This document shows, one piece after another, positions 1-26,247 of a stretch of 64,000 nucleotides of DNA (its first letter is position 1; each line of letters begins with the position of its first letter). The notes under the pieces were generated by a model, which saw only the letters and a program-made list of their open reading frames with translations, did not search any database and was not told where the DNA came from. Source of the DNA: an uncultured Planctomycetales bacterium (GTDB taxonomy: Bacteria; Omnitrophota; Gorgyraeia; Gygaellales; Profunditerraquicolaceae); contig CAZAPM010000006.1 of the NCBI GenBank assembly GCA_964487475.1, forward strand, positions 21,702-85,701. The letters run 5' to 3'. A program made the position numbers and the translations under genes.

Positions 1-225
1 CGCTTCCTGGACCGCCGTCACGGCCGCATCCACCGCGACCTCCGGCTTAGGCTCGGGGGTCTTCATCTCACCGGCTGCAGGCGCGCCGTCGGTAGGCAGC
101 GTGCTCAACGCCGACATGGAAAGCGAATCCTGGGACAACTCGGAAGATTCCTTTTTTCCGCATCCCGCCATTGCCAATGATACCGAAACCGCCGCCACCG
201 CCGCTACTGCCACTGCCTTGTTCAT
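1..225 (-). CDS. Lipoprotein, N-terminal fragment; gene continues beyond window start
   Basis: Minus-strand ATG at 225-223 behind a GGGGAGG RBS. Translation MNKAVAVAAVAAVSVSLAMAGCGKKESS has a signal peptide and lipobox (LAMAGC). The ORF runs off the window edge. Confidence 0.4.
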   Translation of the reverse strand, partial: MNKAVAVAAVAAVSVSLAMAGCGKKESSELSQDSLSMSALSTLPTDGAPAAGEMKTPEPKPEVAVDAAVTAVQEA

Positions 226-244
226 TTCCCGCCTCCCCGGTTGA

Positions 245-724
245 CTACTTCCGATATGTGTGAAGAATCCTGATGATCTCTTTCTTATCCTTGGCCTGCT
301 TCAACAGCTCCACCACGAACTTATCCTTGACCACGCGGGAGATCTCCGCGAGTATCTTCAAATGCATCCCCACCTGCTCCTGGGGGGAAGCCAGCGCGAA
401 AAAGAGAAAGGTCTTCTCACCGTCCAGCGCCCCGAAATCGACCCCCTCTTTGCGCCGGCCGAACACCAGCACGAAATCCTTGGCCACCTTGGTCTTGGCA
501 TGGGGGATCGCCACCCCGTTGCCGATCCCCGTCGAGCCGAGCGCTTCGCGTTCCAGGATCGCCTTGAGAAAGGCTTTCTGGTTCGCCAGCTTGCTGGACT
601 GACCGGCGAGTTCGGAAAGCTCCGCGATCACCTGCGGCTTGGTCTGGCCCTCCAGAGAAAGGCTGATATATTTCTCCTTGAGCAGGGAGACCAGGGTAAC
701 GCTCTTCGCTTCCTTTGCACACAT
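245..724 (-). CDS. ptsN: PTS EIIA type-2 (PtsN/EIIA-Ntr-like) regulatory protein
   Basis: The track ORF 245..1021 carries a C-terminal about 150 aa PTS_EIIA_2 domain (GIGNGVAIPHAK). The upstream part overlaps the MFS gene, so the start was moved to the in-frame ATG at 724 (MCAKEAKSVTLV), giving 160 aa. Confidence 0.65.
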   Translation of the reverse strand: MCAKEAKSVTLVSLLKEKYISLSLEGQTKPQVIAELSELAGQSSKLANQKAFLKAILEREALGSTGIGNGVAIPHAKTKVAKDFVLVFGRRKEGVDFGALDGEKTFLFFALASPQEQVGMHLKILAEISRVVKDKFVVELLKQAKDKKEIIRILHTYRK

Positions 725-738
725 ACGCACTGCTCCTT

Positions 739-1935
739 CTATAGTTCCAGCATCTGCGGAAACCGCAGGGGGATCACCACAAAAAAGAACACGCAGATCA
801 GACCGCTTGCCGCCACTGCCGCCGACACCCCCCACTGGTGCGCCAGCCATCCGCCGAGCAGGTTGCCGAATGGCATCAGCCCGGCGAAGGTGAAAAGAAA
901 GGCGCTCATGATCCGGCCGCGGATATGATCCGGCACGGTCGCCTGCAATAACGTATTGATGAGGCTGGAGGTCGTGACCGCTCCCCACCCCACCAGCATC
1001 AGCAGCGCCAGGGAAAGCCATACCGTATGCGAACAGGCGAATGCCGTGAGCGCCGCGCCGAAGACCAGGGATGAGGCCGCCAGCAGCCTGCCTTTGCGGG
1101 GAAAGTCCCCGCGGCGAGCCAGCAGCAACGCCGCCAGAAGCGCCCCGCAGCCGGCAGCGGACATCAAGGCGCCCAGGCCGCGGATACCGGTATGCAGCAC
1201 GCGTTCGGCGAACAGGGGCATGAGGATGATATAAGAAAGACCGAAAAGGCTCATGATACCCATGATCACCAGAAGCAGCAATACCTGGCGGTGCGCGCGG
1301 ATATACCGCAGCGCATCCCGCACTTCGCTCACCCAGGAGCCGGTCTGCGGCTCACGGGGGATATGGCGGTTGCGGATGCTCAAAAGAGCGAAGATCACGG
1401 CGAGAAAACTCACGCCGTTAAGATAAAAACACCCGCTCATCCCGATCACGGCGACAAACACACCGCCGAGCGCCGGCCCGATGATCCGGGCGGAATTGAA
1501 CGCCGCGGAGTTAAGCGCGATCGCGTTCATCAGATGCTTCTTGCCCACCAGCTCCACGACCATCGCCTGCCGGCTGGGGGCGTCGAACGCCATCACTGCG
1601 CCGTTAAGAAGAGCGATTACCATTATATGCCAAGTCTGCACGATTTGCAACTGTGTTAACAGCCCCAGCGCAAAGGCCAGGACCATGAAGATGTTCTGGG
1701 TCACCAGCAGGATGGCGCGCTTGTTCACCCGGTCCGCGACCACCCCGGCGAACGCGGTAAGGAAGAACATGGGGATGGCGCTCAAGAACCCGACCAGGCC
1801 CAGCAGGAACGCGGAATTCGTCAGCTGGAATACCAGCCAGCTCTGGGAAACGCTCTGGATCCAGGTGCCGATCAGGGAGACCAGCATCCCCGCCCAGTAA
1901 ATGCGAAAATCCCTGATCTTAAGGGAAGAGAACAT
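739..1935 (-). CDS. MFS transporter (DHA3/EntS-like)
   Basis: 398 aa with 12 predicted TM segments and MFS motifs (GVVADRVNKR; GPALGG). Confidence 0.8.
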   Translation of the reverse strand: MFSSLKIRDFRIYWAGMLVSLIGTWIQSVSQSWLVFQLTNSAFLLGLVGFLSAIPMFFLTAFAGVVADRVNKRAILLVTQNIFMVLAFALGLLTQLQIVQTWHIMVIALLNGAVMAFDAPSRQAMVVELVGKKHLMNAIALNSAAFNSARIIGPALGGVFVAVIGMSGCFYLNGVSFLAVIFALLSIRNRHIPREPQTGSWVSEVRDALRYIRAHRQVLLLLVIMGIMSLFGLSYIILMPLFAERVLHTGIRGLGALMSAAGCGALLAALLLARRGDFPRKGRLLAASSLVFGAALTAFACSHTVWLSLALLMLVGWGAVTTSSLINTLLQATVPDHIRGRIMSAFLFTFAGLMPFGNLLGGWLAHQWGVSAAVAASGLICVFFFVVIPLRFPQMLEL

Positions 1936-1943
1936 GCGCGGCG

Positions 1944-2315
1944 TTACGGAGAGATATCCGCGAGATAACTGAGGAGCGTGCGGATAGGCCCGGGATCGGA
2001 GAATTCGAATTTCACGCCCGAATAATACCAGGATTCCTTATGCCGGCGGTAGGTCCGGGTGACCTTACCGAATACCCGCTGCATCACCGGGTTTCCCGGG
2101 AGATTGAAACGGAGCTCGATCCTGGTGCCGGGGAGTATCTTTTTCTCCGTGGTCATCAGGAAGACCCCTCCCTTGGAAATATTGATGATCTCGGGAGTGA
2201 CTTCCCTGACGCTTCCGTCGGGCGCCAGGTGCACCAGGGACACCGGCAGCGAAGCCTTGGGTTCATATCGAGGGTCCTTGCGCCGGTTGAAAGGCTTGAG
2301 CTTTCTCAAAAACAT
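1944..2315 (-). CDS. PilZ domain protein (putative c-di-GMP receptor)
   Basis: 123 aa with an RxxxR...D/NxSxGG-like pattern (RRKDPR ... NISKGGVF). Lies 31 bp downstream of hydF on the same strand. Confidence 0.55.
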   Translation of the reverse strand: MFLRKLKPFNRRKDPRYEPKASLPVSLVHLAPDGSVREVTPEIINISKGGVFLMTTEKKILPGTRIELRFNLPGNPVMQRVFGKVTRTYRRHKESWYYSGVKFEFSDPGPIRTLLSYLADISP

Positions 2316-2346
2316 GACAGTATTGTAACTCCGTTATCCCCGGTTT

Positions 2347-3600
2347 TCAATCCAAAACTTCGCCTTTCGCCTTCCGGTACGCCTCCAGGGCTGCCGGGAA
2401 CGGTTCCAGCACCCGGGAGACCACCCCCTGCAGGGCGCTGATGCACACCCCGTAGTTGGTCACCGCGACCCCTTCGGCGCGCGCCTTCTGGATGCGGGAG
2501 AGCATCTCCCGGCGGTTCATCATGCACCCGCCGCAGTGTACCACTAGCTTATACTCATGCAAAGTCTCGGGATAATCCCTCCCCGAGACCACATCCACCG
2601 CGATATCCGCGCCGATGTACTGGCGTATCCAGCGGGGGATCTTCACCCTGCCGATATCGTCCTCGATGGCGTGATGGCTGCACGACTCGGCGATGAGCAC
2701 CTTATCCCCGCGCGAAAGCCTCTCCAGCACCGCCGCCCCGCGGCTGGACTCGATAAGATCGCCTTTATACCGGGAAAACAGTGTGGAGAACGTAGTGCAG
2801 CGGATATCCCTGGGCGTATCGGCGACCACCTTAAGCACCACCTGCGAATCGCAGACCACGATATCGGGTTTGACGGAAAGGTTTTTTAACATCGCCCCGT
2901 ACTCCCGCTCCTTGACCACCAGGGCGGCTGCGTCGGAATCCAGCGCCTCGCGGATCACCTGCACCTGCGGCAGGATGAGCCTGCCCTTGGGCGCCTGCAG
3001 ATCGATGGGCACCACCATGACCGCGATCCCTCCGGGGGAAAGCAGGTCGGAGATCAGGGGAGGCGGATTGAGGAACTCATCCGGGCAGACCTCCAGAAGA
3101 AGGCGGGTAAGGGTACTCACGTAAAATTCCCGCTTCGCCGTATCGATGCTCGAGGAGACCATCATACGGGCCGATCCCGCCTTGACCGTCTCGAGGAACC
3201 CGGGGGAAGGATCCGCCGTATCGCATTTATTGACCACCGCGATCAGAGGCGCCTTGCGGCTGCGCGCTTCGGCGACCACCCCCTCCTCATACTCCCCCCA
3301 GATATTGGGCTCGCAGATAAGTAGGACCACTTCGCTGCGGGTGAAGACCTGTCTGGTTTTTTTGAGGCGCAGTGGCGAGAGCACCGAAGCATCGTCGAGC
3401 CCGGCGGTATCCAGGAACACCACCGGCCCCAAAGGCAGAAGCTCCATGACCTTCTCCACCACATCCGTGGTGGTGCCGGCGACCGGGGAAGTAATGGCCA
3501 CGTCCTGGCCTGCCACCAGGTTAAGGAAGCTCGATTTCCCGACGTTGGTGCGGCCGAATATGCCGATGTGCAGGCGAAGCGCCTTAGGCGTTTTTTCCAT
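2347..3600 (-). CDS. hydF: [FeFe]-hydrogenase maturase HydF (GTPase scaffold)
   Basis: N-terminal GTPase (GRTNVGKSS; DTAG; NKCD) and C-terminal CxH...HCxxC FeS motif (ESCSHH ... HCGGC). Start moved to the ATG at 3600 (MEKTPK). Confidence 0.85.
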   Translation of the reverse strand: MEKTPKALRLHIGIFGRTNVGKSSFLNLVAGQDVAITSPVAGTTTDVVEKVMELLPLGPVVFLDTAGLDDASVLSPLRLKKTRQVFTRSEVVLLICEPNIWGEYEEGVVAEARSRKAPLIAVVNKCDTADPSPGFLETVKAGSARMMVSSSIDTAKREFYVSTLTRLLLEVCPDEFLNPPPLISDLLSPGGIAVMVVPIDLQAPKGRLILPQVQVIREALDSDAAALVVKEREYGAMLKNLSVKPDIVVCDSQVVLKVVADTPRDIRCTTFSTLFSRYKGDLIESSRGAAVLERLSRGDKVLIAESCSHHAIEDDIGRVKIPRWIRQYIGADIAVDVVSGRDYPETLHEYKLVVHCGGCMMNRREMLSRIQKARAEGVAVTNYGVCISALQGVVSRVLEPFPAALEAYRKAKGEVLD

Positions 3601-4972
3601 GGTCGCGGAACCCCAGAGAGGTAAGGTTATGCGGATCGAGCACTCTGTCAACCAGTTCGGCGCCGAGCTTCTCGACGAGGAACGCACGCACCGAAAGCGC
3701 GCGCCCGCTTCGGCTGCGGTACTCCTGCGCCAGCGCAGTAGCTTTCTCGTATCCTATGTGCGGCAAAAACGCCGTGATCAGGGTGATGCTTTTATCAAAT
3801 GAGGCGCGGCAGGCATCGGGATCAGCGCTGATACCGGAAATATGTTCCGCGAATATCGGCGAGAGGGCAAGCAGAAGCTCCAGTGACTCGAGGATGCTCT
3901 GGGAAAGCAGCGGCATGAACTCGTTGATCTGGAATGTTGCCTTTGCGCAACAATCCGTGATAAGCGCGTCATTGGCAATCACTTTCATGCCTGTCTGTAT
4001 GGCGGCTTCCAGGATCACCGGGTTGACCTTGCCCGCCATGACGGATGAGCCGGCCTGCCTGGCGGGCAGCGCGATCTCGCCCAAAAGGGACATCATCCTG
4101 AGGTCGTTGCTGACCTTGATCAGGTTGACGGCATGGCTTTTCAGTATCCCGGAGACCTCGACAAAACAATCGGTGTTGGCGGTGGCATCCAGGGAATTCT
4201 CCCCGCGGGAAAGACCCATCCCGGTCCCTTCGCGCAGCTTCTCGATCACCAGGAAGATGTAACTGCGGGGCGCGGTCAATCCGGTGCCTACGGCCGTGCC
4301 TCCGATGTTGACCACGCGCAGCCGCTCCTCGCATTTGAAGGTGCGCCAGCGGTCGCGGGAGAAAGCCTCGGCAAAGGCGCCGAACTCGGCGCCCAGGGTG
4401 ATCGGCACCGCTTCCTGCATCTCCGTGCGCCCGATCTTGACCACCGCGGCGAACTCCTTCTCCTTTTTTTGGAACGCTCCCTGCACGGCAGCGATCTCCT
4501 GATTGAGCAGCCGGAACGCCTCGATACAGGCGATCTTTAACGCCGTCGGATACACATCATTGGTGGACTGATGCAGGTTGACGTCTTCCACGGGATGTAT
4601 CCCCGCATAATCGCCTTTGGCTTTACCGAGGATCTCCAGCGCGCGGTTGGCAAGCACCTCGTTGACGTTCATGTTGGTGGACGTGCCCGCCCCTCCCTGC
4701 AGGGCAGCGACGGGGAACTGGTCGGCATACGCTCCCTGCGCGACCTCGTCGCAGGCGCTGATGATCGCCCGGGACTTTACCGCATCGAGATACCCCAGCT
4801 CGGCGTTCGCCTGGGCGCAGGCTTTCTTGACATGCGCCAGCGCGCGGATAAGGCGCGGCTGCACTCCCGGGCCCGGGAAAGGGAAATTCTCCAAAGCCCG
4901 CTGCGTATGGATCCCCCAATACGCCTCCTGCGGCACCTGCTTCTCTCCCAGCATATCCTTCTCAACCCTCAT
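3584..4972 (-). CDS. aspA: Aspartate ammonia-lyase family protein (AspA-like) embedded in the hyd maturase operon
   Basis: Fumarase/aspartase signature GSSVMAGKVNP. N-terminus MRVEKDMLGEKQVPQEAYWGIHTQRALENF is aspartase-like. ATG at 4972 overlaps the hydE stop (ATGA). Confidence 0.8.
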   Translation of the reverse strand: MRVEKDMLGEKQVPQEAYWGIHTQRALENFPFPGPGVQPRLIRALAHVKKACAQANAELGYLDAVKSRAIISACDEVAQGAYADQFPVAALQGGAGTSTNMNVNEVLANRALEILGKAKGDYAGIHPVEDVNLHQSTNDVYPTALKIACIEAFRLLNQEIAAVQGAFQKKEKEFAAVVKIGRTEMQEAVPITLGAEFGAFAEAFSRDRWRTFKCEERLRVVNIGGTAVGTGLTAPRSYIFLVIEKLREGTGMGLSRGENSLDATANTDCFVEVSGILKSHAVNLIKVSNDLRMMSLLGEIALPARQAGSSVMAGKVNPVILEAAIQTGMKVIANDALITDCCAKATFQINEFMPLLSQSILESLELLLALSPIFAEHISGISADPDACRASFDKSITLITAFLPHIGYEKATALAQEYRSRSGRALSVRAFLVEKLGAELVDRVLDPHNLTSLGFRDHGKNA

Positions 4973-6075
4973 TTTAGGGACGCTCCTAAAGGGGACGCCC
5001 CTAAAGGGGACACCCCCGCAGAAGGCGGGGCACCGGCCGCTTCCTCTTGGGCCGGGTGCGCAGAAGGCGGGCGTTTTATCGCATCGCCTCTGGAATAGTC
5101 GATAAAGCGGCCGAGGCTCTTGGCCACCGCCTCCATACATCCGACACAGGCCCCCTCTTTCTCCTCGATACATTTCTTCCCGGGATAGATCTCGTATAAT
5201 TTCCGGTACTTGACCGGGGTAAAATTGGGCATGATCACGTTGGCGCCGGCTTTCAAACCTTCCAGGCGGTAATCCTTCTCCAGGCTCCCCAAAGCGGTAG
5301 TGGCCGGAAGATGCGGGGTTCTCACCGCGATACGGGTCACGGCAAGCGCCTTTAAGGTCAAGGCCACCTCCCCGTGCAGCTGTTCGGCCAAAGGCGTCTG
5401 GCGGTGAGGGATAAAAGGGCCGATGCCGATCATCTCGAAATCGAAACTCTTGTAGAAAAGGATATCCTCGGCGATGGTCTCTAAGGTCTGCCCTTTAAGG
5501 CCGATGATCCCGCCGGATCCGGTCTGGTATCCGAGCTTCTTGAGCGCGCGCAGGCACTGCACGCGGTGCTCGAAGCTCATCCCCGGATGCAGGGACTCGT
5601 AAAGCTTGCGGTTCGCGGTCTCGATCTTGAGCAGGTAACGGTCAGCGCCGGCATCCTTCCACAGCGCATACTCCGCTTCGGGACGCTCGCCCACGCAAAG
5701 GGTGACCGCCATATCCGCATGCCGGGACTTGATCTGCGCGACCAGCTCCGCCAGCCAGCGGGGATCGAGGGAATCCTCCTCCCCGGATTGCAGCACCACG
5801 GTCTTCATCCGGCACTCCGCGATCTTATCCACCGCGGCCAGGACCTCCTCGCTGCTCATACGGTAGCGCGGCAGCGCGGTATTATTCTTGTTGAGCCCGC
5901 AGTAATAGCAGGTGTTGCGGCAATGATTGGAGAATTCCACGATACCGCGCAGCAATATCCCCTCGCCCATGTACGTGCGGCGCACTTCGTCCGCATGCGA
6001 GAAGAGTTCCTGCAACGCGGCATCCTCCGTCCGCGAAAGCAATTCCACGATATCCCGGATATTAGACGTATTCAT
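4969..6075 (-). CDS. hydE: [FeFe]-hydrogenase maturase HydE (radical SAM)
   Basis: CRNTCYYCGL radical-SAM motif and BioB/HydE-like fold. The low-complexity C-terminal tail is encoded by the tandem repeat at 4976-5017. Confidence 0.85.
   Translation of the reverse strand: MNTSNIRDIVELLSRTEDAALQELFSHADEVRRTYMGEGILLRGIVEFSNHCRNTCYYCGLNKNNTALPRYRMSSEEVLAAVDKIAECRMKTVVLQSGEEDSLDPRWLAELVAQIKSRHADMAVTLCVGERPEAEYALWKDAGADRYLLKIETANRKLYESLHPGMSFEHRVQCLRALKKLGYQTGSGGIIGLKGQTLETIAEDILFYKSFDFEMIGIGPFIPHRQTPLAEQLHGEVALTLKALAVTRIAVRTPHLPATTALGSLEKDYRLEGLKAGANVIMPNFTPVKYRKLYEIYPGKKCIEEKEGACVGCMEAVAKSLGRFIDYSRGDAIKRPPSAHPAQEEAAGAPPSAGVSPLGASPLGASLK
4976..5017. repeat. Tandem 15-bp GC-rich repeat (GGGACGCTCCTAAAG x about 3), member of a short dispersed repeat family
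   Basis: Read directly. Encodes the hydE C-terminal tail (PLGASPLGASLK). Confidence 0.6.
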
Positions 6076-7447
6076 CGCGCGCCCCCTGAGCGATGTGCGC
6101 GAAGAACGCCTCCACGCACTGCTTATCCTCCGGCGGAAGTTTCGCCTTAAGCTCCTCGATCATCCGGTATCCGGCATCCCGGGTCTTCGGGGAGCCGAAA
6201 TCATCGAGGTACTCCCGCAGGGTGATCAGGGCATTCATGCTGCACTTACCCTTGATGGTGCCGGGCTTGGCCAGGTCCATGAACGCCTCTCCGGTGCGCT
6301 CCTTGCGGTAACAGGCGGCGCAAAAACTCGGGATGAACCCGCGCTCGATCAGGGAAGCCATCACCTCGTCGAGGGAACGGGTATCGCTTAAGGTGAACTG
6401 CTCGGCAGCGCCTTCGCGCTCGTCGTTGTACCCGCCGGGATTGGTACGGCTCTCCGCGCTGACCTGCGAGATGCCCAGGTTGAAAAGCTCGTCGCGCATA
6501 TCGGCGTTCTCGCGGGTGGAGAGGATGATGCCGGTGTAGGGGACCGCCAGGCGCAGCACCGCTACGATGCGCCGAAAATCCTCGTCGCGCACCTTATACT
6601 TCAGGTCCTTGACGAACTCCACCCCCTCCGCCGGCTCGATGCGAGGCACGGAGATAGTATGCGGGCCGACACGATGCTTCTTTTCCAGGGCCTCCACGTG
6701 CATGAGCATGGCCAGCGTATCGAATCTCCAGTCATACAGCCCGTAGAGTACGCCGATACCGATATCGTCGATCCCGGCGGCAAACGCCCGGTCGACCGCA
6801 TCGATGCGGTTATCCGGATCGGATTTCGGCCCCTTGGGGTGCACGTACCGGTACGTCTCTTCGTGATACGTCTCCTGGAATATCTGATAGGTGCCTATTC
6901 CCGCGGCTTTGAGCTTCCGGAATTCATCGACGGATAACGGCGCGGCGTTGACATTGACCCGCTTGATCTTATGCGGGCCGACGCTCACCTCGTAAATGGC
7001 TTTTACCGCATCCACATAATAATCGACAGGTGCGAGGCCTGGGATCCCCGCCTCGCCGCTGACCATCAGGATGCGCTTGTGGCCGCGCGTCAGGAGCCAG
7101 GAGACCTGCTCCTTGATCTCGGGGATGGAAAGCGCCCGGCGCCTGGTGGATGTATTGTCCGCCTTGAACGCACAGTAAAGGCAGGCATTGGCGCAAAGGT
7201 TGCTTATGTAAAGGGGCGCAAAAAGCACCACCCGCTTACCGTAGATGCGGTCCTTGACTTCGGCGGCAGCGGCAAATATCTCCCTGACCAACTCCGGGTC
7301 CCGGCAGCACAAAAGCGCGGCGGTTTCCTCGAGGGAAAGGCGGGTCAAGGTGCGACTCTTGGCCAGGATGGAGCGGATGCGCGCGGCAGTCGCCTGCGGC
7401 GCTTTGGAGATGATATCGAAGATCAACGCTTCGTCGATGTATCGCAT
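6062..7447 (-). CDS. hydG: [FeFe]-hydrogenase maturase HydG (radical SAM tyrosine lyase)
   Basis: CANACLYC radical-SAM motif, ThiH-like core, and C-terminal auxiliary-cluster motif CAACYRKERTGEAFMDLAKPGTIKGKC (CxxCx22C). Confidence 0.9.
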   Translation of the reverse strand: MRYIDEALIFDIISKAPQATAARIRSILAKSRTLTRLSLEETAALLCCRDPELVREIFAAAAEVKDRIYGKRVVLFAPLYISNLCANACLYCAFKADNTSTRRRALSIPEIKEQVSWLLTRGHKRILMVSGEAGIPGLAPVDYYVDAVKAIYEVSVGPHKIKRVNVNAAPLSVDEFRKLKAAGIGTYQIFQETYHEETYRYVHPKGPKSDPDNRIDAVDRAFAAGIDDIGIGVLYGLYDWRFDTLAMLMHVEALEKKHRVGPHTISVPRIEPAEGVEFVKDLKYKVRDEDFRRIVAVLRLAVPYTGIILSTRENADMRDELFNLGISQVSAESRTNPGGYNDEREGAAEQFTLSDTRSLDEVMASLIERGFIPSFCAACYRKERTGEAFMDLAKPGTIKGKCSMNALITLREYLDDFGSPKTRDAGYRMIEELKAKLPPEDKQCVEAFFAHIAQGARDEYV

Positions 7448-7459
7448 GTGAACCTTTCT

Positions 7460-7978
7460 TTACTCCCCGCACATCCAGGTACCGGAGGCGTCGCGGTGGC
7501 ACAGCTGCCACGCCGGAGCATCATACCAGAGCTGGAAGGTATCCTTCTGCGCATTGGGGATATAATGGAACCCGCTGTGCTGGAATGCAGGCGCGGGGAT
7601 GGATTTAAGATGGTCAGGGATCAGGTCCTGCAGGGTCTCGGGAAGCCGGCCCTTGGTGCTGCGGTACTCCTGAATGGCGGAGAACACCCTGTTCCCGTCT
7701 ATCTGGGAGAATTCATGCAGATGCTTCCTGCGCTCGAAGGCCATGCCCCGCACCATGAAGAACGCGCCCGCGGCCAGCGCCACCAGCAGTATCCCGGCGA
7801 TATTGCGCCGCACAAAGGAGGCGGCGATAAGCAGCAGAGAAATGATCCCGACACCCAGGAGAAAAAGCCCCATGAGCGCGGAGAAAATGAATCCGATCGC
7901 CATCACCGATGAGAAATAGAAAAATCCGACCGCGACCAGCACCAGCCCCAGGTACACCAGATACAGCCAATTGCCCAT
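7460..7978 (-). CDS. Uncharacterized membrane protein (3 TM helices plus soluble Cys-containing C-terminal domain) in the hyd maturase operon
   Basis: 172 aa ORF between the TM1266-like regulator gene and hydG, with short gaps on both sides. Hydrophobic N-terminal half. Confidence 0.5.
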   Translation of the reverse strand: MGNWLYLVYLGLVLVAVGFFYFSSVMAIGFIFSALMGLFLLGVGIISLLLIAASFVRRNIAGILLVALAAGAFFMVRGMAFERRKHLHEFSQIDGNRVFSAIQEYRSTKGRLPETLQDLIPDHLKSIPAPAFQHSGFHYIPNAQKDTFQLWYDAPAWQLCHRDASGTWMCGE

Positions 7979-7979
7979 C

Positions 7980-8231
7980 TTACCCTCCCTTGCTCAATGC
8001 CGACTTGACCGAAACCCCGGGCACCTTGCCGAGCTTGCCCGTCAACGCCCCCAACTCGTCGGTCGTGGCGTCCACGATCAGCGCGATGACGTTCATGTCC
8101 CGCTTGGCGTGCGGGATACCCATGCGACCGATGACCAGGCCGCCGAATTCGGTCAGTATCTCGTTGACCTTGGGCGCCGCGCCCTTCCTGTCCTCGATGA
8201 TCACACCCACGAACCCTAACCGCTTATCCAT
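7980..8231 (-). CDS. Putative iron-only hydrogenase system regulator (TM1266-like, NikR C-terminal/ACT-like)
   Basis: 83 aa (MDKRLGFVGVIIEDRKGA ... ), the size and pattern of the family found with hydEFG. AAGGAGG RBS. Confidence 0.6.
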   Translation of the reverse strand: MDKRLGFVGVIIEDRKGAAPKVNEILTEFGGLVIGRMGIPHAKRDMNVIALIVDATTDELGALTGKLGKVPGVSVKSALSKGG

Positions 8232-8247
8232 TCGACCTCCTTGAAGC

Positions 8248-8298
8248 AGGGACGGTTCTCCCTGGGGACACTTTTAACCGTAAATGAGAACCGTCCCT
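8248..8298 (-). promoter_or_regulatory. Stable 13-bp-stem hairpin in the leader 5 nt upstream of the RBS of the TM1266-like gene
   Basis: AGGGACGGTTCTC (8248-8260) pairs with GAGAACCGTCCCT (8286-8298). Its first arm resembles the GGGACGCTCCT repeat family. Confidence 0.4.
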
Positions 8299-8302
8299 AA
8301 CT

Positions 8303-8345
8303 AAACAAAAACGGTCTTACCGCAGCTGCCTGCAGTAAGACCGGG
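8303..8345 (-). terminator. Rho-independent terminator downstream of hydA (minus strand)
   Basis: Minus-strand reading CCGGTCTTACTGCAGGCAGCTGCGGTAAGACCG followed by TTTTTGTTT. Confidence 0.6.
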
Positions 8346-8437
8346 ATAAAATGAACCTATCTCGTTCTCCCTTGGGCTCAGAACGCGCACCTCGCGATTC
8401 CTTACCGCAGGCAATCGACACACACCGCACACCAGAA

Positions 8438-10186
8438 CTACTTCGCGTATACCGGACGGGCCTTATATTTCGTGTGCAGAAGCTTCTCGGATTTTTCTCC
8501 CAGAGGCTTGCCCAGGAATTCCTTGTACAGCTGCTGGATGTACGGATTCTCATGCGAACATCGCAGCTTGTGGTCCTTATCGTCCTGATAGATTCCCTTG
8601 GCCCGCAGGATGCGCAGCTCATCCGTCACACCGTACGGCTGGCCGCCTCCGCCTACACAGCCGCCCAGGCAGGCCATGACCTCCACGAAATGGAACGCCG
8701 GCTCCTTGCCCGCCTTCTCCGAATCGCGGATCATCTGCAGCACTTCCTCCACATGGCTTAACCCGTGGGCCACGGCAATGCGCAGCTTCTTGCCCGGGGC
8801 CACCTCGATCTCCGCGGTCTTGACGCCCTTTAAGCCCCGCACATCCTCCAGATCGATCCTGCCCAGATTCTTGCCGTTGACGAAATAGTACGCGGTACGG
8901 ACCGCCGCTTCCATGACGCCGCCCGTAGCCCCGAAAATGACGCCCGCTCCGGTGTAATCGCCGAGTATGGAATCCGGTTCCTCATCCGGCAAATTGACGA
9001 AGTCCACGCCCGCCTGCTTGATCATGCGCGCAAGTTCCCGGGTGGTCAGGGCTACGTCCACATCCTGCAGCCCGGAGGCATACATCTCTTCGGAACGGAT
9101 GATCTCGTTCTTCTTGGCGGTGCAGGGCATGATGGAGACCATGAAGATCTTCTTCGGGTCGATCCCCGTCTTTTGCGCATAATACGTCTTGGAAAGCACC
9201 CCCACCATCTCGTGCGGGGATTTGCAGGAGGAAAAATGATCGATCATATCCGGATGGAACTTCTCCATGAAATCCACCCACCCCGGACAGCAGGAAGTGA
9301 TCAGGGGGAGAGAACCCTTGCCGTGGGCATAGCGCTCCACGAACTCGCTGGCCTCCTCCATGATGGTCAGATCCGCGCCGAAGTTGGTATCGAACACCGC
9401 CTTGAAACCCAAACGCCGCAGCAACGCGTACAGCCGTTTGGTCATGTTGGTACCGATGGGAAGCCCGAACGCCTCGCCTATCGCCACACGGACCGCCGGA
9501 GCGATCTGCACCACGCAGTACTTCTCCGCATCCTGCAAGGATTCCCACACCTGCGCGGTCTGGTCCTGCTCGACGATCGCCCCCGTCGGGCAATGATTGG
9601 AACATTGGCCGCAGCGGATACAGGGCGAATCCGCAAGCTGGATGTCTCCGGCAGGCGAGATCCTGGTGCAGAAACCGCGCTCGAGGAATGAAAGCGCCCA
9701 GACGTTCTGCATCTCCTGACAGACCTTCACGCACCGGCCGCAGCGGATGCACTTCTGCGCATCCAGCACGATGGTGCGGGTGGAATCGTCCTTCGGCACA
9801 TCGGGAAGGAACTTATCGAAAGGCTCCTGCCGGATGGCGAAATCCGCCACCAGACGCTGCAGCTCGCAATCGTTATTGCGACCGCACTGCAGGCAATCGT
9901 TGGGATGATTGGAAAGGATGAGCTCGACCACGGTGCGGCGCACCGCCACGATCTCCGGGTCATGGGTGATGATATCCATCCCGTTCTCCAGCGGAGTCGA
10001 ACAGGCCCGCAGCATCTTCGGGGTGCCCTTGATCTTGACGATGCACAGCCCGCAGCCCGCTCCCGGAGGAAGGTCGGGATGCTTGCATAAAGTAGGGATA
10101 TTGATCTGCACCTTCTTGGCGGCGTCGAGGATCGTCGTTCCTTCCTTCACCTCGATGGGAAATCCGTTTATTTTCGCACTGATCAT
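8438..10186 (-). CDS. hydA: [FeFe]-hydrogenase catalytic subunit HydA (M3 type, without C-terminal thioredoxin-like domain)
   Basis: H-cluster motifs TSCCPGW, MPCTAKKNE and EVMACLGGCVGGGGQP. N-terminal 2Fe-2S and 4Fe-4S ferredoxin domains. Start at the ATG at 10186 with an AAGGAG RBS. Confidence 0.9.
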   Translation of the reverse strand: MISAKINGFPIEVKEGTTILDAAKKVQINIPTLCKHPDLPPGAGCGLCIVKIKGTPKMLRACSTPLENGMDIITHDPEIVAVRRTVVELILSNHPNDCLQCGRNNDCELQRLVADFAIRQEPFDKFLPDVPKDDSTRTIVLDAQKCIRCGRCVKVCQEMQNVWALSFLERGFCTRISPAGDIQLADSPCIRCGQCSNHCPTGAIVEQDQTAQVWESLQDAEKYCVVQIAPAVRVAIGEAFGLPIGTNMTKRLYALLRRLGFKAVFDTNFGADLTIMEEASEFVERYAHGKGSLPLITSCCPGWVDFMEKFHPDMIDHFSSCKSPHEMVGVLSKTYYAQKTGIDPKKIFMVSIMPCTAKKNEIIRSEEMYASGLQDVDVALTTRELARMIKQAGVDFVNLPDEEPDSILGDYTGAGVIFGATGGVMEAAVRTAYYFVNGKNLGRIDLEDVRGLKGVKTAEIEVAPGKKLRIAVAHGLSHVEEVLQMIRDSEKAGKEPAFHFVEVMACLGGCVGGGGQPYGVTDELRILRAKGIYQDDKDHKLRCSHENPYIQQLYKEFLGKPLGEKSEKLLHTKYKARPVYAK

Positions 10187-10188
10187 GG

Positions 10189-11931
10189 CTACTCCTTGGA
10201 GATGGCGCCGAATTTGCACACTTCAAAACACTTGCCGCATTTGACGCACTTATCCTGGTGCAGGGTAAAACCCTGCTCCTTGTCGCCGGTAATGGCGCCC
10301 ACGGGACAGTTGATCACGCAGACGCGGCAGCGCTTGCATTTATCCTGGATGATGTCGTAATTGATGAGATTCCGGCACTTATGCGAACGGCATTTCTTAT
10401 GCACGATATGGTCCATGAACTCCTGCTCGAAATACTTCAGGGTGGAGACCACCGGATTGGCGGCGGTCTGCCCGAGCGCGCACAGGGATGCTTTCTGCAT
10501 AGCCAGGGCGATCTGCTTCAGTTTGGCGATGTCTGAAAGCAGCCCTTTTCCCTCGCTGATCCGGTTCAGGATCCCCAGCATCTGGTAGCCGCCGATGCGG
10601 CAGGGCACGCACTTTCCGCAGGACTCGTCCACGCAGAACCCTAAATAGAATTTGGCGATATCCACCATGCAGTCGTCCTCGTCCATGACGATCATACCGC
10701 CGGATCCCATGATGGAGCCGAGTTTCGAGAGATTGTCGTAATCGATGGGCGTATCCAGGTACTCCTTGGGGATGACGCCACCGGAAGGCCCGCCGGTCTG
10801 CACCGCCTTGATGGCCTTGCCGGAATACATGCCGCCTCCGATATCGAAGACGATCTCGCGCAGGGTGGTGCCCATGGGCACTTCCACCAGCCCGGAGTTC
10901 TTGACCTTGCCCGTGAGCGCAAAGACCTTGGTGCCCTTGGATTTCTCGGTGCCGATGGCGCCGTACCAGGCCCCGCCCCGGACCATGATCTCGGGGATGT
11001 TGGCGAGCGTCTCCACGTTATTGATCGCGGTCGGTTTCTCCCAGAGTCCGGACACCGACGGATACGGAGGACGGGGACGCGGCGTGCCGCGTTTCCCCTC
11101 GATGGAAGCGATCAGCGCGGTTTCCTCTCCGCAGACGAACGCGCCCGCTCCCAGGCGGATATCCAGGTCGTAGCTGAAATCGCTCCCCAGGATATTCTTT
11201 CCCAGCAGCCCCAGCTCATAGGCCTGGGCAATGGCCTTTTCCACGCGCTTGACCGCCAGAGGATACTCCGCGCGGATATAGAAGAAACCCTTTGAGGCTC
11301 CGATGGTATAGCCGGCGATGATCATGCCTTCCAGCACCGAATGGGGGTCCCCTTCCAGCACTCCGCGGTCCATGTACGCCCCCGGGTCCCCCTCGTCGGC
11401 GTTACAGATCATGTATTTCTGATCTCCCTTGGATTCGCGGGTCAGCTTCCACTTCATCCAGGTCGGGAATCCCGCGCCGCCCCGGCCGCGCAGCCCGCTC
11501 TTTTTCATCTCCTCGATCACCGCTTCCGGTGTCATCTCCGTCAAAACCTTCTTCAGGCCCTGATACCCTCCCTGGCCGATATATTCCTCGATCGACTCCG
11601 GATCGACCTTGCCGCAGTTGCGCAGCACGATGCGCATCTGCTTGGGCTCCTGGGTGAACGCCAGGTCCGAAAGCACCTTGCCGTCCTTTAAGGTCTCGTC
11701 CACGATCCGGTTGATATCGGACTCGCGCACGTTGGTATAGACGATGCCGTCGGGCACGATCTTGATCACCACCCCCTGGCTGTAGATGCCGATATCCGCC
11801 ACCCGCACCACCTGCACGGACTCCTCGAGCTTATCCTCCCGGATGCGGTTGGAGAAAAGCGTGTAGAAATCGTGGGTGGAGTCCTGGGTCAGGCCTTCCG
11901 AATCCTTCAACAGTACGATCTTCTTATCCAT
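10189..11931 (-). CDS. hydB: NADH-binding subunit HydB (NuoF-like, C-terminal 2x[4Fe-4S])
   Basis: GGAGFPTW and NADH/FMN-site motifs, soluble-ligand-binding and NuoF 4Fe-4S region, C-terminal CxxCxxCxxxCP x2. The N-terminal about 100 aa contains no cysteines. Confidence 0.85.
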   Translation of the reverse strand: MDKKIVLLKDSEGLTQDSTHDFYTLFSNRIREDKLEESVQVVRVADIGIYSQGVVIKIVPDGIVYTNVRESDINRIVDETLKDGKVLSDLAFTQEPKQMRIVLRNCGKVDPESIEEYIGQGGYQGLKKVLTEMTPEAVIEEMKKSGLRGRGGAGFPTWMKWKLTRESKGDQKYMICNADEGDPGAYMDRGVLEGDPHSVLEGMIIAGYTIGASKGFFYIRAEYPLAVKRVEKAIAQAYELGLLGKNILGSDFSYDLDIRLGAGAFVCGEETALIASIEGKRGTPRPRPPYPSVSGLWEKPTAINNVETLANIPEIMVRGGAWYGAIGTEKSKGTKVFALTGKVKNSGLVEVPMGTTLREIVFDIGGGMYSGKAIKAVQTGGPSGGVIPKEYLDTPIDYDNLSKLGSIMGSGGMIVMDEDDCMVDIAKFYLGFCVDESCGKCVPCRIGGYQMLGILNRISEGKGLLSDIAKLKQIALAMQKASLCALGQTAANPVVSTLKYFEQEFMDHIVHKKCRSHKCRNLINYDIIQDKCKRCRVCVINCPVGAITGDKEQGFTLHQDKCVKCGKCFEVCKFGAISKE

Positions 11932-11949
11932 GCGGCTTCACCTTATCTA

Positions 11950-12300
11950 TTATTTGCTGCGCAGTTCGTAGATGCTATCCTTAACCAGGACGTTGGAGCA
12001 GACATGCTTCTCCATGATCTTGGCCGCGATCTCCTTGTTCACCTTCCCGTAGAGCACCGCCGGAAGGCCCTCGGTCTTGACCTCCACCATCGGCTCGGCA
12101 TAACACATCCCCTGGCAGCCGCAGCGCTTGATCTCGATGGCGCAATTGCGCTTCTTGGCTTCCTCCTGCAGGGTGGCGAACACCACATCCGCGCCCGCGG
12201 CGATCCCGCAGGTGCTCATCCCCACTTTGATCCACGCCGACGGTTCGGCGGAAAGGTCCTTGCGCATCGCTTCCAGGCCGTTCTTATCGAGCTTCGCCAT
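11950..12300 (-). CDS. Thioredoxin-like [2Fe-2S] ferredoxin (stand-alone NuoE-like domain)
   Basis: 116 aa with a CGIAAG ... CxxxC ... C cysteine pattern. Sits between hydC and hydB. Confidence 0.55.
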   Translation of the reverse strand: MAKLDKNGLEAMRKDLSAEPSAWIKVGMSTCGIAAGADVVFATLQEEAKKRNCAIEIKRCGCQGMCYAEPMVEVKTEGLPAVLYGKVNKEIAAKIMEKHVCSNVLVKDSIYELRSK

Positions 12301-12305
12301 ATCCC

Positions 12306-12788
12306 TTAACCCTCTTTCTTGCTGTTGCCGTACTGCGAAAGGATATCCATCACTTCGCTTTTCTTGACCTTGCCGTAGACCTTATCGTCGATCATGATGA
12401 CCGGAGAAAGTCCGCAGCATCCCAGGCAGCGCACCACGTCGAGCTGGAAAAGCTTGTCCTTGGTGCTCCCCCCCTCCTCCACGTTCAGGATGGTCTTGAT
12501 CTCGTTGAGGATGACCGGGGCTCCCTTGAGGTAGCAGGCGGTCCCCATGCACACCGCGATCTTATGCTTGCCCGGAGCCTCCAGCTTGAAAAAATTATAG
12601 AAGGTGATGACCTCGTAGATGCGCGCCAGCGGCACGCCGAGTATCTTGGAGAGCTCCAGCGCTGCCGGCCGGGGCACATACCCGTAATGATTCTGCAGCT
12701 CGTGCAGGATCATGATCAGGTTGCCCTGCTTGTCCTTCCACTTGCTGGCCAGTAAGGCGATCTCTTGCTTTACTTCCTGCGGATCCAT
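12306..12788 (-). CDS. hydC: NuoE-like 24 kDa subunit HydC
   Basis: Thioredoxin-like 2Fe-2S motifs (CMGTACYLKG ... CLGCCGLSP). Start moved to the internal ATG (MDPQEVKQ) behind an AGGAG RBS. The TTG-initiated extension in the track was rejected. Confidence 0.75.
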   Translation of the reverse strand: MDPQEVKQEIALLASKWKDKQGNLIMILHELQNHYGYVPRPAALELSKILGVPLARIYEVITFYNFFKLEAPGKHKIAVCMGTACYLKGAPVILNEIKTILNVEEGGSTKDKLFQLDVVRCLGCCGLSPVIMIDDKVYGKVKKSEVMDILSQYGNSKKEG

Positions 12789-12829
12789 AGGTTTCGCTCC
12801 TGTAAAAATTTCGGGGGACTTCGTTACTT

Positions 12830-12847
12830 TGTGAAAACTATCACAAA
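12830..12847 (-). promoter_or_regulatory. Rex operator (TTGTGAA-N4-ATCACAA) in the hydC-fdx-hydB-hydA leader
   Basis: TTGTGAAAACTATCACAA read directly, with one mismatch to TTGTGAAnnnnTTCACAA. Lies just downstream of the -10. Confidence 0.55.
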
Positions 12848-12877
12848 TCGGCGATAAAAAAAATAATAGTGCAGTTA

Positions 12878-12906
12878 TACTACCTTTCTTCCGGTTCCCT
12901 GTCAAG
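12878..12906 (-). promoter_or_regulatory. Sigma70-type promoter of the hydCBA operon
   Basis: Minus-strand TTGACA - 17 bp - TAGTAT. Confidence 0.5.
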
Positions 12907-12929
12907 GGAAATCTCCCCGGACCGGGGCT

Positions 12930-14186
12930 TCAAATCACCGTGCCGGAAGGGATTACCGTATCTTTGGGGATGATGATGATCCCGTGCCTCGCCACGCAGA
13001 ACTCGTTCTCGAACTCATCCAAGCCCTTCTTATTGGTGATCTTGACGTTATCCCCGATGCGGCAGTTCTTATCCACGATCACCTTGGAGAGATGGCAGTT
13101 GCGGCCGATACCCAACGGCGGCTGTTGGGCCGCGCCGTGCCTGGCCGCGTACGCCTCCGCCGGGTCATAATAATCGTTTCCCATGAGGATGGAGTCCTCG
13201 ACCACGGAATCCGCGCCGATACGCGCGCGCAAGCCGACGATGGAATGCGTGATGCGCGACTTGTCGATCATGGCACCCTCCGCGATGATGGAGCGCTCGA
13301 TGCGGCTCTCCGCGATCTTGGAAAGGGGCAGGAAGCGCGAACGGGTGAAGAACTGCCAGTTCTCGTCATAAAAATCCAGGGGCGGCTGCGCGTCCGTAAA
13401 CGCCAGGTTCTCCTCGTAGAAGGACTCGATCGACCCGATATCCTTCCAGTACCCCTCGTGCAGGAAGGCGAAGGTCTTGGCCCGGACTAAAGCGTCGGGA
13501 ATGATCTCCTTGCCGAAATCCACCTTATGCTGGTCTAAAAGCAGCTGGGCCAGAACGTCTTTGTTGAAAAGGTAAATGCCGGTAGAGGCCAGGAACTTCT
13601 CTTTACCCCCCACCTCGATCTCCATCCCTTCGATCTCCTCGCTCTTTTTGGGCTTCTCGATGAAGGTGCGGATACGGCTGGTCTTGTCGATCCCCATGAT
13701 CCCCAGTTCCGGAGTCTCCTTGCGGTCGACGGGATTGCAGGCGACCGTGATCTCCGACTTCTTCTCGATGTGGAAATTGAACAGGGCGCTGAAATCCATG
13801 CGGTAGAGCTGGTCGCCGGAGAGGATCAGCAGGTACTTGATGCGGGGGTCGCCCAAATGCCGGAAGCATTTGCGCACGGCATCCGCGGAACCCTGGAACC
13901 AGTCCGCATGCTCCATGGACTGGGACGCGGCCAGGATCTCGATGAACCCTTCGGAGAAGGAGTCGAGCTTGTACGCCCGGGTGATGTGCCGGTTCAGCGA
14001 TGCGGAGTTGAATTGCGTCAGGATGACGATCTTCTTGATGCCGGAGTTGATGCAGTTGCTGATAGGGACGTCGACCAGGCGGTACTTCCCGAAGATGGGG
14101 ACCGCGGGTTTGGCGCGGTACTTGGTGAGGGGATAAAGCCGGGTGCCCCGCCCTCCCCCTAAGATCACGCACAGGACGTCTTTCAT
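12930..14186 (-). CDS. glgC: Glucose-1-phosphate adenylyltransferase
   Basis: N-terminus MKDVLCVILGGGRGTRLYPLTKYRAKPAVPIFGKYRLVD and a left-handed beta-helix C-terminus. Confidence 0.9.
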   Translation of the reverse strand: MKDVLCVILGGGRGTRLYPLTKYRAKPAVPIFGKYRLVDVPISNCINSGIKKIVILTQFNSASLNRHITRAYKLDSFSEGFIEILAASQSMEHADWFQGSADAVRKCFRHLGDPRIKYLLILSGDQLYRMDFSALFNFHIEKKSEITVACNPVDRKETPELGIMGIDKTSRIRTFIEKPKKSEEIEGMEIEVGGKEKFLASTGIYLFNKDVLAQLLLDQHKVDFGKEIIPDALVRAKTFAFLHEGYWKDIGSIESFYEENLAFTDAQPPLDFYDENWQFFTRSRFLPLSKIAESRIERSIIAEGAMIDKSRITHSIVGLRARIGADSVVEDSILMGNDYYDPAEAYAARHGAAQQPPLGIGRNCHLSKVIVDKNCRIGDNVKITNKKGLDEFENEFCVARHGIIIIPKDTVIPSGTVI

Positions 14187-18948: not shown

Positions 18949-20112
18949 TTACAGGTAATTTACCACCACCAGCTTGCCGCACTTCCTGATCTTTTCCGCA
19001 AGCAAAGGCACCACATCGAGGCGCGGCAGGATACCCAGCTCCTTGAACAGGATGGATTCATTGGCCGGATTAGGGGCGCGCCCCACCCAGAAGACGATAT
19101 GGTCCGCTTCCCGGATCATCTCGCAGAACCGGCTGACCCCCGAATCCGGCTGGTAGTTGCGCGGGTCCTCGTCGAAGATGTTGCAGACGCGGTTCAAGGT
19201 AAAAGCCCCCTCGGTGACAAGATCCACGCCATTGATGTAATACCTCGGGGGCTCAAAATAGTTTCCCAGCTCCTCCTGCACCTGCATGGAGATACCCAGC
19301 GACCGCGAGACGATCTCGGCGGTAGTGGACCCGCAGATGATCTTCGGGCCCTCCAGGTCCATGAACTCCTGCACCACGGCGCGGTCATGGTGCGGGGAAA
19401 GGGGCGGCCCGCTCAGGATAGTGAGGGGCTTTCCCGGACGGCTGGTGATAAGGCAGGCCGTGGCATCGTCATGGAACACGCCCTGCGAATACTCGCCCGC
19501 CTGGGCCAGCACGTACTCCGGCACGTCCCGCATGGCGCGCGATTCGGCGATGCACTTGTTGACAAAATCCCTCACCCCTTCGCTCGTCCAGCCCAGGCGC
19601 AGGGTCTGGCCCATGCCCGCCTGGGATATCCCGTCGGAAAAAAGCAGCAGGTGCTGCTGATGGTGCAGTGTCAGGTGCGCCTGGCCCAGCACTTCCCCTC
19701 CCAGGGTGAAAAAATGCTGCGGCAGGATACAGGCGCGCGAATCCTGGATCGCCACCGGCGCGGGCATCTCATAGGTCAGGACCGAAGCGCTGCCGTCGTT
19801 CAGCACCCGGACCAGGCAGAACGCGGAAAAAGGGATATCCTCGGTGCGGGCCTGGTGCATGGTCTGCATCAGGCTTTCGCACGTCTTCATCAGGGATACG
19901 CCGCGGCGCATGAGCTCCATCATCCGGGAGGCGCATAAGGTCGCGGCGACATGCGCCTTGATCCCGCTGCCCAGCCCGTCGCAAAGGAGCACGGTGGTAG
20001 CCTCGGGGGTGCGCTCCGTGACCGCCAGGTCGCCGCACACGGAATGCTCCCCCTTAGCCGCCTGCGCCATGGCGACGTCAATATGGGTATAGCCTTTCTG
20101 CACGGAGTTCAT
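18949..20112 (-). CDS. PP2C/SpoIIE-type serine/threonine phosphatase with an uncharacterized C-terminal domain
   Basis: GDL ... DGLGSG ... FSDG PP2C motifs. ATG at 20112 overlaps the hydS stop (ATGA). Confidence 0.65.
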   Translation of the reverse strand: MNSVQKGYTHIDVAMAQAAKGEHSVCGDLAVTERTPEATTVLLCDGLGSGIKAHVAATLCASRMMELMRRGVSLMKTCESLMQTMHQARTEDIPFSAFCLVRVLNDGSASVLTYEMPAPVAIQDSRACILPQHFFTLGGEVLGQAHLTLHHQQHLLLFSDGISQAGMGQTLRLGWTSEGVRDFVNKCIAESRAMRDVPEYVLAQAGEYSQGVFHDDATACLITSRPGKPLTILSGPPLSPHHDRAVVQEFMDLEGPKIICGSTTAEIVSRSLGISMQVQEELGNYFEPPRYYINGVDLVTEGAFTLNRVCNIFDEDPRNYQPDSGVSRFCEMIREADHIVFWVGRAPNPANESILFKELGILPRLDVVPLLAEKIRKCGKLVVVNYL

Positions 20113-25749: not shown

Positions 25750-26236
25750 CTTCCTGCTCCTTCCTGATCACTTCGTCTATAAGCGCCGCGGCGAGCGCCG
25801 GGGTCATCTGCCCGTGGACCTCGTCGTTGAGCACCACTGCCGGGGCCAGGCCGCAGGCGCCCAGGCAGGAGACGGTCTCCAGGGTAAAAAGCATGTCCGG
25901 GGTCGTGGTCTGCCCGTCGGATAATCCCAGCTTGCGCTGCAGCGCGTCCAAAATGGCGGTGGACTTCTTCACATGGCAGGCCGTGCCGTCGCACACCCGG
26001 ATCACGTACTTGCCTTTGGGGGTCAGGGTGAAATGGGAGTAGAACGTGGCCACTCCGTAGACCTTCGCCGGAGAAAGCCCGAGGGAGGTCGCGATGAAAG
26101 TCAGGATCTCCTCCGGGAGATACCGGTACTCCTCCTGCACCGCCTGGAGGATGGGGATGAGCTTGGCCGGATCATGGTCATACCTGGCCAGGATCTCGCA
26201 GAGTTTATGGAATTTATGCAACGCGTCGTTTTTCAT
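25730..26236 (-). CDS. hydC: NuoE-like subunit HydC2
   Basis: CDGTAC ... CLGACGLAP motifs. 168 aa. Confidence 0.8.
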   Translation of the reverse strand: MKNDALHKFHKLCEILARYDHDPAKLIPILQAVQEEYRYLPEEILTFIATSLGLSPAKVYGVATFYSHFTLTPKGKYVIRVCDGTACHVKKSTAILDALQRKLGLSDGQTTTPDMLFTLETVSCLGACGLAPAVVLNDEVHGQMTPALAAALIDEVIRKEQEDEARVA

Positions 26237-26247
26237 CGGTATACCCC

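Follow-up and report, generated by a model that had tools for sequence, protein, structure and literature searches.

Why does a gene for an aspartate ammonia-lyase-like protein (AspA-like) lie among the maturase genes of an [FeFe] hydrogenase? The question arises from a 64-kb stretch of contig CAZAPM010000006.1 (uncultured Planctomycetales bacterium, assembly GCA_964487475.1), called hereafter the window, to the whole of which all coordinates refer. Seven genes, all on the minus strand, follow one another in the order TM1266-like, membrane protein, hydG, hydE, aspA-like, hydF and PilZ. A first-pass annotation of this DNA had reported the gene order and coordinates, the tight spacing, an ATGA overlap between hydE and aspA and a gap of 31 nt between hydF and PilZ, all of which were confirmed from the sequence. 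It had also suggested a dedicated role for the lyase, for example as a local source of ammonia for the synthesis of the dithiomethylamine bridge of the H-cluster.

The locus is a genuine, ordinary [FeFe]-hydrogenase maturation operon of known kind. The reading that we favour, with a probability of about 70%, is that of a standard operon carrying a widespread, hyd-linked AspA, which supplies the ammonium for the bridge and is coupled to hydF by an overlap of the two genes. The role proposed for the lyase finds support in synteny, in the clade structure of the AspA proteins and in the literature, but it is not new, having been published in 2024 (Pagnier et al., J Biol Chem 300:107760, PMC11736057). 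In that study, hyd operons were strongly associated with ammonia-lyase genes, and aspA adjoined hydF almost always. Electron-nuclear double resonance (ENDOR) showed that 15N from aspartate enters the bridge in a defined maturation system containing E. coli AspA, the in vitro route running from ammonium through the glycine-cleavage T-protein to the aminomethyl-lipoyl-H-protein (PMC11736057). A 2025 paper in PNAS restates the ammonium-supply model (PMC12501116). As early as 2012, aspA had been described between hydG and hydF in Pelobacter carbinolicus, where a metabolic explanation was given (PMC3543383). The window shares with these clusters hydE, hydF, hydG and an aspA adjoining hydF, together with the same proposed ammonium role. 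It differs from them by its order, hydG-hydE-aspA-hydF, by an extra membrane-protein gene before hydG, and by the PilZ gene past hydF.

Gene families were assigned by Pfam and NCBIfam scans, a match being accepted above the curated cut-offs, and junction lengths were taken directly from the sequence (Table 1). The identities of the three maturases are also visible in their translations. HydG, the radical S-adenosylmethionine (SAM) tyrosine lyase responsible for the Fe(CO)2(CN) synthon, contains both a CX3CX2C motif (CANACLYC) and a C-terminal CX2CX22C motif (CAAC, 22 residues, then C). HydE contains the radical SAM motif CX3CX2C in the form CRNTCYYC, and its TIGR03956 match stops at residue 331 of 368, leaving a C-terminal tail of 37 aa. 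HydF possesses the Pfam dimerisation and tetramerisation domains, a P-loop (GRTNVGKS) and the CxH...HCxxC motif, here CSH...HCGGC. The first gene of the operon, TM1266-like, encodes a putative regulator of the iron-only hydrogenase system, a function that databases give as putative for the whole family (TIGR03959/PF21699). Its product matches that family over the full length with no notable difference, and a homologue likewise leads the maturase genes in many related loci, including L003, L037, L038, L094 and L151. The TM1266-like gene is separated from the membrane-protein gene by 1 nt and the latter from hydG by 12 nt, whereas hydG and hydE overlap by 14 nt, hydE and aspA by 4 nt (ATG at 4972-4970, TGA at 4971-4969) and aspA and hydF by 17 nt. 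The start assigned to aspA, at 4972, is right, because the N-terminal sequence MRVEKDMLGEK aligns with residues 5-15 of Bacillus AspB (VRIEKDFLGEK).

Conservation of the aspA-hydF junction

Two sets of related loci were compared with the window. The first came from a genome scan with the AspA-like protein and comprised 80 loci, in which hyd genes were sought by tblastn with the window proteins. The second consisted of metagenomic loci picked by HydF similarity, hence unbiased towards aspA, and 66 of these were evaluable. The first-pass annotation had asked whether an aspA-like gene holds a conserved position across hydEFG-containing genomes, and in both sets the answer was strongly positive. 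For the genome scan, in which the best match to the window protein was at 64%, at least one of hydE, hydF and hydG lay within 5 kb of the AspA homologue at 46 of the 80 loci. These 46 are almost all of the approximately 48 most similar homologues (at least 46% identity); homologues at 45% identity or less were unlinked housekeeping aspartases or fumarases. The linked loci carry more than ten phylum-level labels, including Planctomycetota, Omnitrophota, Bacteroidota, Hydrogenedentota and Calditrichota, as well as Desulfobacterota, Bacillota, Spirochaetota and Actinomycetota. Among the cultured carriers are Solidesulfovibrio (L016), Paenibacillus wynnii (L017) and Clostridium caldaquaticum (L029), besides P. 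carbinolicus. For the HydF-selected set, aspA was found directly 5' of hydF in 54 of the 66 loci.

In the window and in 86 related loci, aspA adjoined hydF and was clustered with hydE and/or hydG. The usual orders in the relatives were (TM1266)-hydG-aspA-hydF-hydE and TM1266-aspA-hydF-hydG-hydE. Among the 74 aspA/hydF junctions whose start codon was clear, 61 overlap, and 45 have exactly the 17-nt overlap of the window. The stop codon of AspA, TAA, sits within the CCT-AAR codons of the conserved Thr-Pro-Lys at the N-terminus of HydF. The conserved coupling is that of aspA to hydF and not that of hydE to aspA, on which the first-pass annotation had laid its stress: the ATGA junction between hydE and aspA is specific to the lineage of the window.

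A small repeat was observed at this lineage-specific joint. A 15-nt unit (GYGTCCCYTTYAGG-like) has four matches in the window, versus 0.52 expected, and is present as a tandem pair at two sites, 4985-5013 (minus strand) and 48693-48721 (plus strand). The first pair encodes SPLGASPLG in the 37-aa C-terminal extension of HydE; the second adjoins an 11-bp perfect hairpin. Possibly the unit is a small dispersed repeat, taken into hydE as the hydE/aspA junction arose.

A neighbour-joining tree of 78 AspA sequences, built without bootstrap values, placed the hyd-linked proteins, that of the window included, in one clade apart from AspB and the housekeeping enzymes. Neither this clade separation nor the conservation of the aspA/hydF overlap at the nucleotide level was found in the literature searched.

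Active site and probable role of the AspA-like protein

The AspA-like protein was aligned with AspB of Bacillus sp. YM55-1 (PDB 1J3U) and 80 homologues, and residues are numbered as in AspB. It aligns with AspB over its entire sequence (E = 1.6e-115). Thr101, Ser140, Thr141, Asn142, Thr187, Ser318 (of the SS loop), Lys324 and Asn326, the catalytic and substrate-binding residues of AspB, are all conserved. The Lyase_1 domain (PF00206) scores 252.7 bits, the superfamily signature GS-x2-M-x2-K-x-N is present as GSSVMAGKVN, and another motif is GGAGTS, as in aspartases, and not the TGSGTQ of fumarases. In its active-site residues and in GGAGTS the protein is like the housekeeping aspartases AspB (PDB 1J3U and 3R6V) and E. 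coli AspA (PDB 1JSW). Differences from such enzymes, which the first-pass annotation had advised looking for, do exist besides the separate clade, and they leave the catalytic residues intact: they concern position 188, a short segment before the SS loop and the SS loop itself. Judged from the alignment, the protein fits a working aspartase with some specialisation, its activity and substrate being presumed ones.

These differences, with several other points, weigh against the favoured reading. The protein does not reach the cut-off of TIGR00839, the strict equivalog model for aspA (451 bits, for a cut-off of 681.2), although it passes the broader subfamily model NF008909 (Table 1). Position 188, which is His in AspB and Gln in E. 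coli-type and many housekeeping AspA proteins, is Glu in the window; where this position was readable in hyd-linked AspA proteins, it was Glu in 48 and Gln in 16. Five residues, the SGPxxG segment that precedes the SS loop, are missing, a deletion common to 53 of 80 hyd-linked relatives. The SS loop reads MAGK instead of the near-universal MPGK, a Pro to Ala change that is restricted to the window protein (0 of 80 hyd-linked relatives). Its recurrence in identical copies from independent metagenome samples (L085) rules out a sequencing error. At the level of the locus, L151, the nearest relative as judged by HydA (81% identity), shows in its region 1994-12634 the cluster hydA-TM1266-hydG-hydE-hydF, followed by a U32 peptidase gene, without aspA, membrane-protein gene or PilZ. 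It follows that close lineages have gained or lost the aspA gene and that some of them can dispense with it. Moreover, free ammonium is normally plentiful in anaerobes, and an in vivo need for ammonium from AspA is unproven. Finally, no assay of any hyd-linked AspA was found in the literature, the published test having been made with the housekeeping enzyme of E. coli.

A further substitution was seen in a large subgroup of the hyd-linked AspA proteins (many in L007-L040 and related loci), in which QDAVL(T/I)TLG replaces QDAVPxTLG. It is a Pro to Leu change located five residues past position 188, and the unlinked aspartases of the alignment retain Pro.

In the reading that we favour, the AspA-like enzyme would split L-aspartate into fumarate and ammonium. 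The glycine-cleavage T-protein, together with methylene-tetrahydrofolate formed by serine hydroxymethyltransferase (SHMT), would use this ammonium to load the aminomethyl-lipoyl-H-protein. The loaded H-protein would then bring a CH2-NH-CH2 unit to the diiron precursor on HydF, giving rise to the dithiomethylamine bridge. The 17-nt overlap of aspA and hydF would couple the making of the ammonium source to that of the scaffold that consumes the ammonium. We infer that the window enzyme is an aspartase and that it does this job in vivo.

A stronger proposal, less probable than not, is that hyd-linked AspA is a dedicated fourth maturation factor, produced in step with HydF by virtue of the 17-nt overlap and acting as its physical partner, directly handing ammonia or other nitrogen derived from an amino-dicarboxylate to the bridge step. 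Glu or Gln at position 188 and the loss of SGPxxG by the SS loop would then reflect specialisation, and the enzyme would not be interchangeable with a housekeeping aspartase.

It is unlikely, on the other hand, that the aspartase serves metabolism (aspartate catabolism, nitrogen acquisition or a fumarate electron sink) and merely shares the regulation of the hyd genes. Such was the original view for P. carbinolicus (PMC3543383), the use of fumarate as an anaerobic electron acceptor was also invoked in PMC11736057, and the complete aspartase active site is retained. Yet aspA adjoins the maturase gene hydF, not the structural hydrogenase genes, and more than half of the junctions (the 45 of 74 mentioned above) keep the overlap identical to the nucleotide. 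The separation of the hyd-linked clade from the housekeeping aspartases points instead to a dedicated partner. No second aspartase was found within the 64-kb window.

Quite unlikely, too, is a main action on HydF itself, instead of or besides the supply of bridge nitrogen, whether by local NH4+ serving as the monovalent cation that gates the GTPase or by an AspA-HydF complex. The strictly conserved overlap fits co-production of the two proteins, but K+ also activates this class of GTPases, and a complex is without direct evidence. NH4+ stimulates GTP hydrolysis by HydF (as cited in PMC11736057), whereas the 15N of aspartate does reach the bridge in vitro (PMC11736057). Such an action is compatible with the bridge-nitrogen explanation and does not exclude it.

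The membrane-protein and PilZ genes

The open reading frame (ORF) between the TM1266-like gene and hydG encodes a protein of 172 aa, without match in Pfam or NCBIfam. When 5.8 billion proteins were searched with a word index, only the protein itself was returned. An exhaustive HMMER search revealed a family of about 256 representatives, mostly of some 170 aa and 25-38% identical. An alignment of 25 members showed a C-terminal motif with conserved Pro, Trp and two cysteines, Cys160 and Cys170, each conserved in 90% or more of the members. The AlphaFold2 (AF2) model computed from the family alignment (predicted local distance difference test score, pLDDT, 94.7) has three N-terminal transmembrane helices, the third of which extends as a long helix packed against a four-stranded sheet. 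Foldseek ranked type IV pilins first, but at weak significance (4d40, probability 0.93, E = 0.13; 4tsm, E = 0.65). The predicted long helix on a four-stranded sheet and the C-terminal cysteine pair would be shared with type IV pilins and pseudopilins such as the Shewanella oneidensis pilin (PDB 4D40). In contrast to pilins, the protein has three transmembrane helices, and not a single prepilin leader and helix, and has no G/FxxxE site. A true pilin was ruled out, the N-terminus (MGNWLYLVYLG...) being devoid of a class III signal peptide and of a prepilin peptidase site (G|F/M-xxxE). The model thus lends weak support to a protein that may be pilin-like in fold only, and the cysteine pair, by analogy, suggests that the pilin-like domain faces outside the cytoplasm.

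The family is hardly linked to hyd genes. One homologue, from a related organism (L089, 160-678) and 37-38% identical, occupies the same position between a TM1266-like gene and hydG, which makes the arrangement a real one in a narrow lineage. Since the flanking TM1266-like and hydG genes of that locus are 84% and 72% identical to those of the window, the membrane gene evolves much faster than its operon neighbours. Five other family members were inspected. Three lie by an IS110 transposase, an M48 peptidase and a helix-turn-helix (HTH) gene, respectively, two are on uninformative contigs, and no hyd neighbour was seen beside any of the five. The hidden Markov model (HMM) of the family found no member in 160 other hyd loci, the only hits being in the same species and in L089; tblastn with the 172-aa and PilZ proteins detected neither of them in 160 related loci. 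We conclude that the membrane gene is a lineage-specific insertion with no demonstrated tie to maturation, and a link of it to the hyd system finds no support.

The PilZ protein carries both canonical motifs for binding of cyclic di-GMP (c-di-GMP), RRKDPR (RxxxR) and NISKGG (D/NxSxxG), and is by its motifs a plausible c-di-GMP receptor. It shares its domain (PF07238) and the two motifs with other stand-alone PilZ receptors. It differs from them in having no close homologue, the search of 5.8 billion proteins yielding only the protein itself, and in its unique place past hydF. That place had been called unexpected. A Pfam scan of 69 ORFs located just 3' of hydF in relatives detected PilZ in none of them. 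A link of PilZ to the hyd system finds no support there. In these relatives, drawn from loci L001-L171, the commonest family in the first ORF past hydF was DUF5818 (8 of 69), and a Memo-like protein was found in 4. No literature linking PilZ to [FeFe]-hydrogenase maturation was found.

In the simplest reading, PilZ is an unrelated neighbour that was placed by hydF through local rearrangement. It may be transcribed together with hydF, by read-through, or from a promoter of its own. A scan of the region found nothing resembling a terminator from hydF through PilZ to the MFS gene that follows, and the weak sigma-70-like match before PilZ (Table 1) is one of 7 found in the region, versus 4.6 expected from shuffled sequences, so that such matches are barely enriched. 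PilZ and the MFS gene do not form a conserved pair: an MFS_3 orthologue in L151 (59% identity) lies about 5.4 kb 3' of hydF, past unrelated genes, where it is preceded by an ABC-F gene and where no PilZ is present. Both are lineage-specific neighbours, with no demonstrated role in maturation. A phosphotransferase system (PTS) EIIA-2 (PtsN-like) gene (245-721, minus strand) lies 17 nt past the MFS gene, and the same-strand run reaches the edge of the window.

That maturation relies on PilZ and/or the pilin-like membrane protein as functional components, for instance in a c-di-GMP control of hydrogenase assembly, is very improbable: the tight spacers of 1, 12 and 31 nt, the missing terminator between hydF and PilZ, the two c-di-GMP-binding motifs and the same position of the membrane gene in L089 would speak for it, but all 69 relatives have something other than PilZ after hydF, a promoter-like site directly precedes PilZ, the membrane family is absent from the 160 other hyd loci and occurs elsewhere by the transposase, peptidase and HTH genes, the cysteine pair suggests an extracytoplasmic domain whereas maturation is cytoplasmic, and the literature is silent on PilZ in [FeFe] maturation. 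The tblastn search, the family HMM and the Pfam scan of downstream ORFs together led to rejection of both proteins as conserved hyd components.

Surrounding genes, transcription signals and significance

The coordinates of the features are collected in Table 1.

Table 1. Genes and signals of the maturation locus and its surroundings (window coordinates; scores with cut-offs in brackets)
Feature	Position	Strand	Evidence or remark
MFS_3 (EntS-like) transporter	739-1935	-	family scans; begins 8 nt past PilZ stop
Stand-alone PilZ-domain protein, 123 aa	1944-2315	-	PF07238, 41.9 bits (22.5)
Sigma-70-like promoter match, TTGAAA-17 nt-TACAAT	2322-2350	-	weak; spans hydF stop, ends 7 nt before PilZ ATG
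hydF, GTPase scaffold	2347-3600	-	TIGR03918, 509.2 bits (325.55)
aspA-like (aspartate ammonia-lyase-like)	3584-4972	-	NF008909, 552.5 bits (510); Pfam Lyase_1 and FumaraseC_C
hydE, radical SAM maturase	4969-6075	-	TIGR03956, 357.7 bits (254.6)
hydG	6062-7447	-	TIGR03955, 495.1 bits (312.15)
172-aa membrane protein ORF	7460-7978	-	three predicted transmembrane helices
TM1266-like small protein, about 80 aa	7980-8231	-	TIGR03959, 106.9 bits (60.8); PF21699
Second hairpin, about 13 bp (GGGACGGTTCTC...GAGAACCGTCCC)	8249-8298	-	no T-run; just 5' of AAGGAGG ribosome-binding site of TM1266-like gene
Terminator-like hairpin 3' of hydA	8312-8343	-	terminator scan; 14-bp stem, 8 G-C pairs, then T-run TTTTTGTTT
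hydA, catalytic subunit, NADH-dependent (trimeric-type) [FeFe] hydrogenase	8438-10219	-	NF040763, 795 bits (765)
nuoF-like	10189-11931	-	upstream of hydA
Small ferredoxin-like gene	11950-12300	-	upstream of hydA
nuoE-like	12306-12788	-	upstream of hydA
PP2C/SpoIIE phosphatase	18949-20358	-	second hydrogenase cluster
HydS-like sensory hydrogenase	20112-21857	-	Fe_hyd_lg_C and PF04060
Second HydA	21850-23853	-	42% identical to first
Rex-like repressor	26248-26919	-	second hydrogenase cluster, which also has nuoE-like and nuoF-like genes

The trimeric-type hydrogenase encoded directly upstream of the maturase operon is the client enzyme of the maturases. The gap between hydA and the TM1266-like gene is 206 nt long and contains two strong hairpins. 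The fold of 8225-8440 has an energy of -84.4 kcal/mol (z = -3.8 versus shuffled sequence). The maturase genes are set apart from the structural hydrogenase operon by the terminator-like hairpin of this gap (8312-8343), which marks the dividing line. The maturase genes may be expressed by partial read-through from the structural operon, and the paired hairpins could act in attenuation or processing, keeping the level of the maturases below that of the hydrogenase. A riboswitch or other known RNA in the gap was also considered, and was dropped after an Rfam search of positions 1-13500, the gap included, gave no match at E up to 1. Another cluster of [FeFe]-hydrogenase genes is present at 18949-26919 (minus strand).

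Where the amine nitrogen of the H-cluster bridge comes from had long been asked. Work since 2022-2024 has largely given the answer, to which this locus makes no qualitative addition. Its PilZ and membrane-protein genes appear irrelevant to hydrogenase biology. The remaining interest lies in the hyd-linked AspA, which forms a distinct clade and the translation of which is locked to that of hydF, whereas the published test used the E. coli enzyme. From a cognate AspA-HydF pair one could learn whether the ammonia reaches HydF by channelling or is simply set free in its vicinity, and the answer would matter for the efficient production of [FeFe] hydrogenases in vitro or in heterologous hosts.

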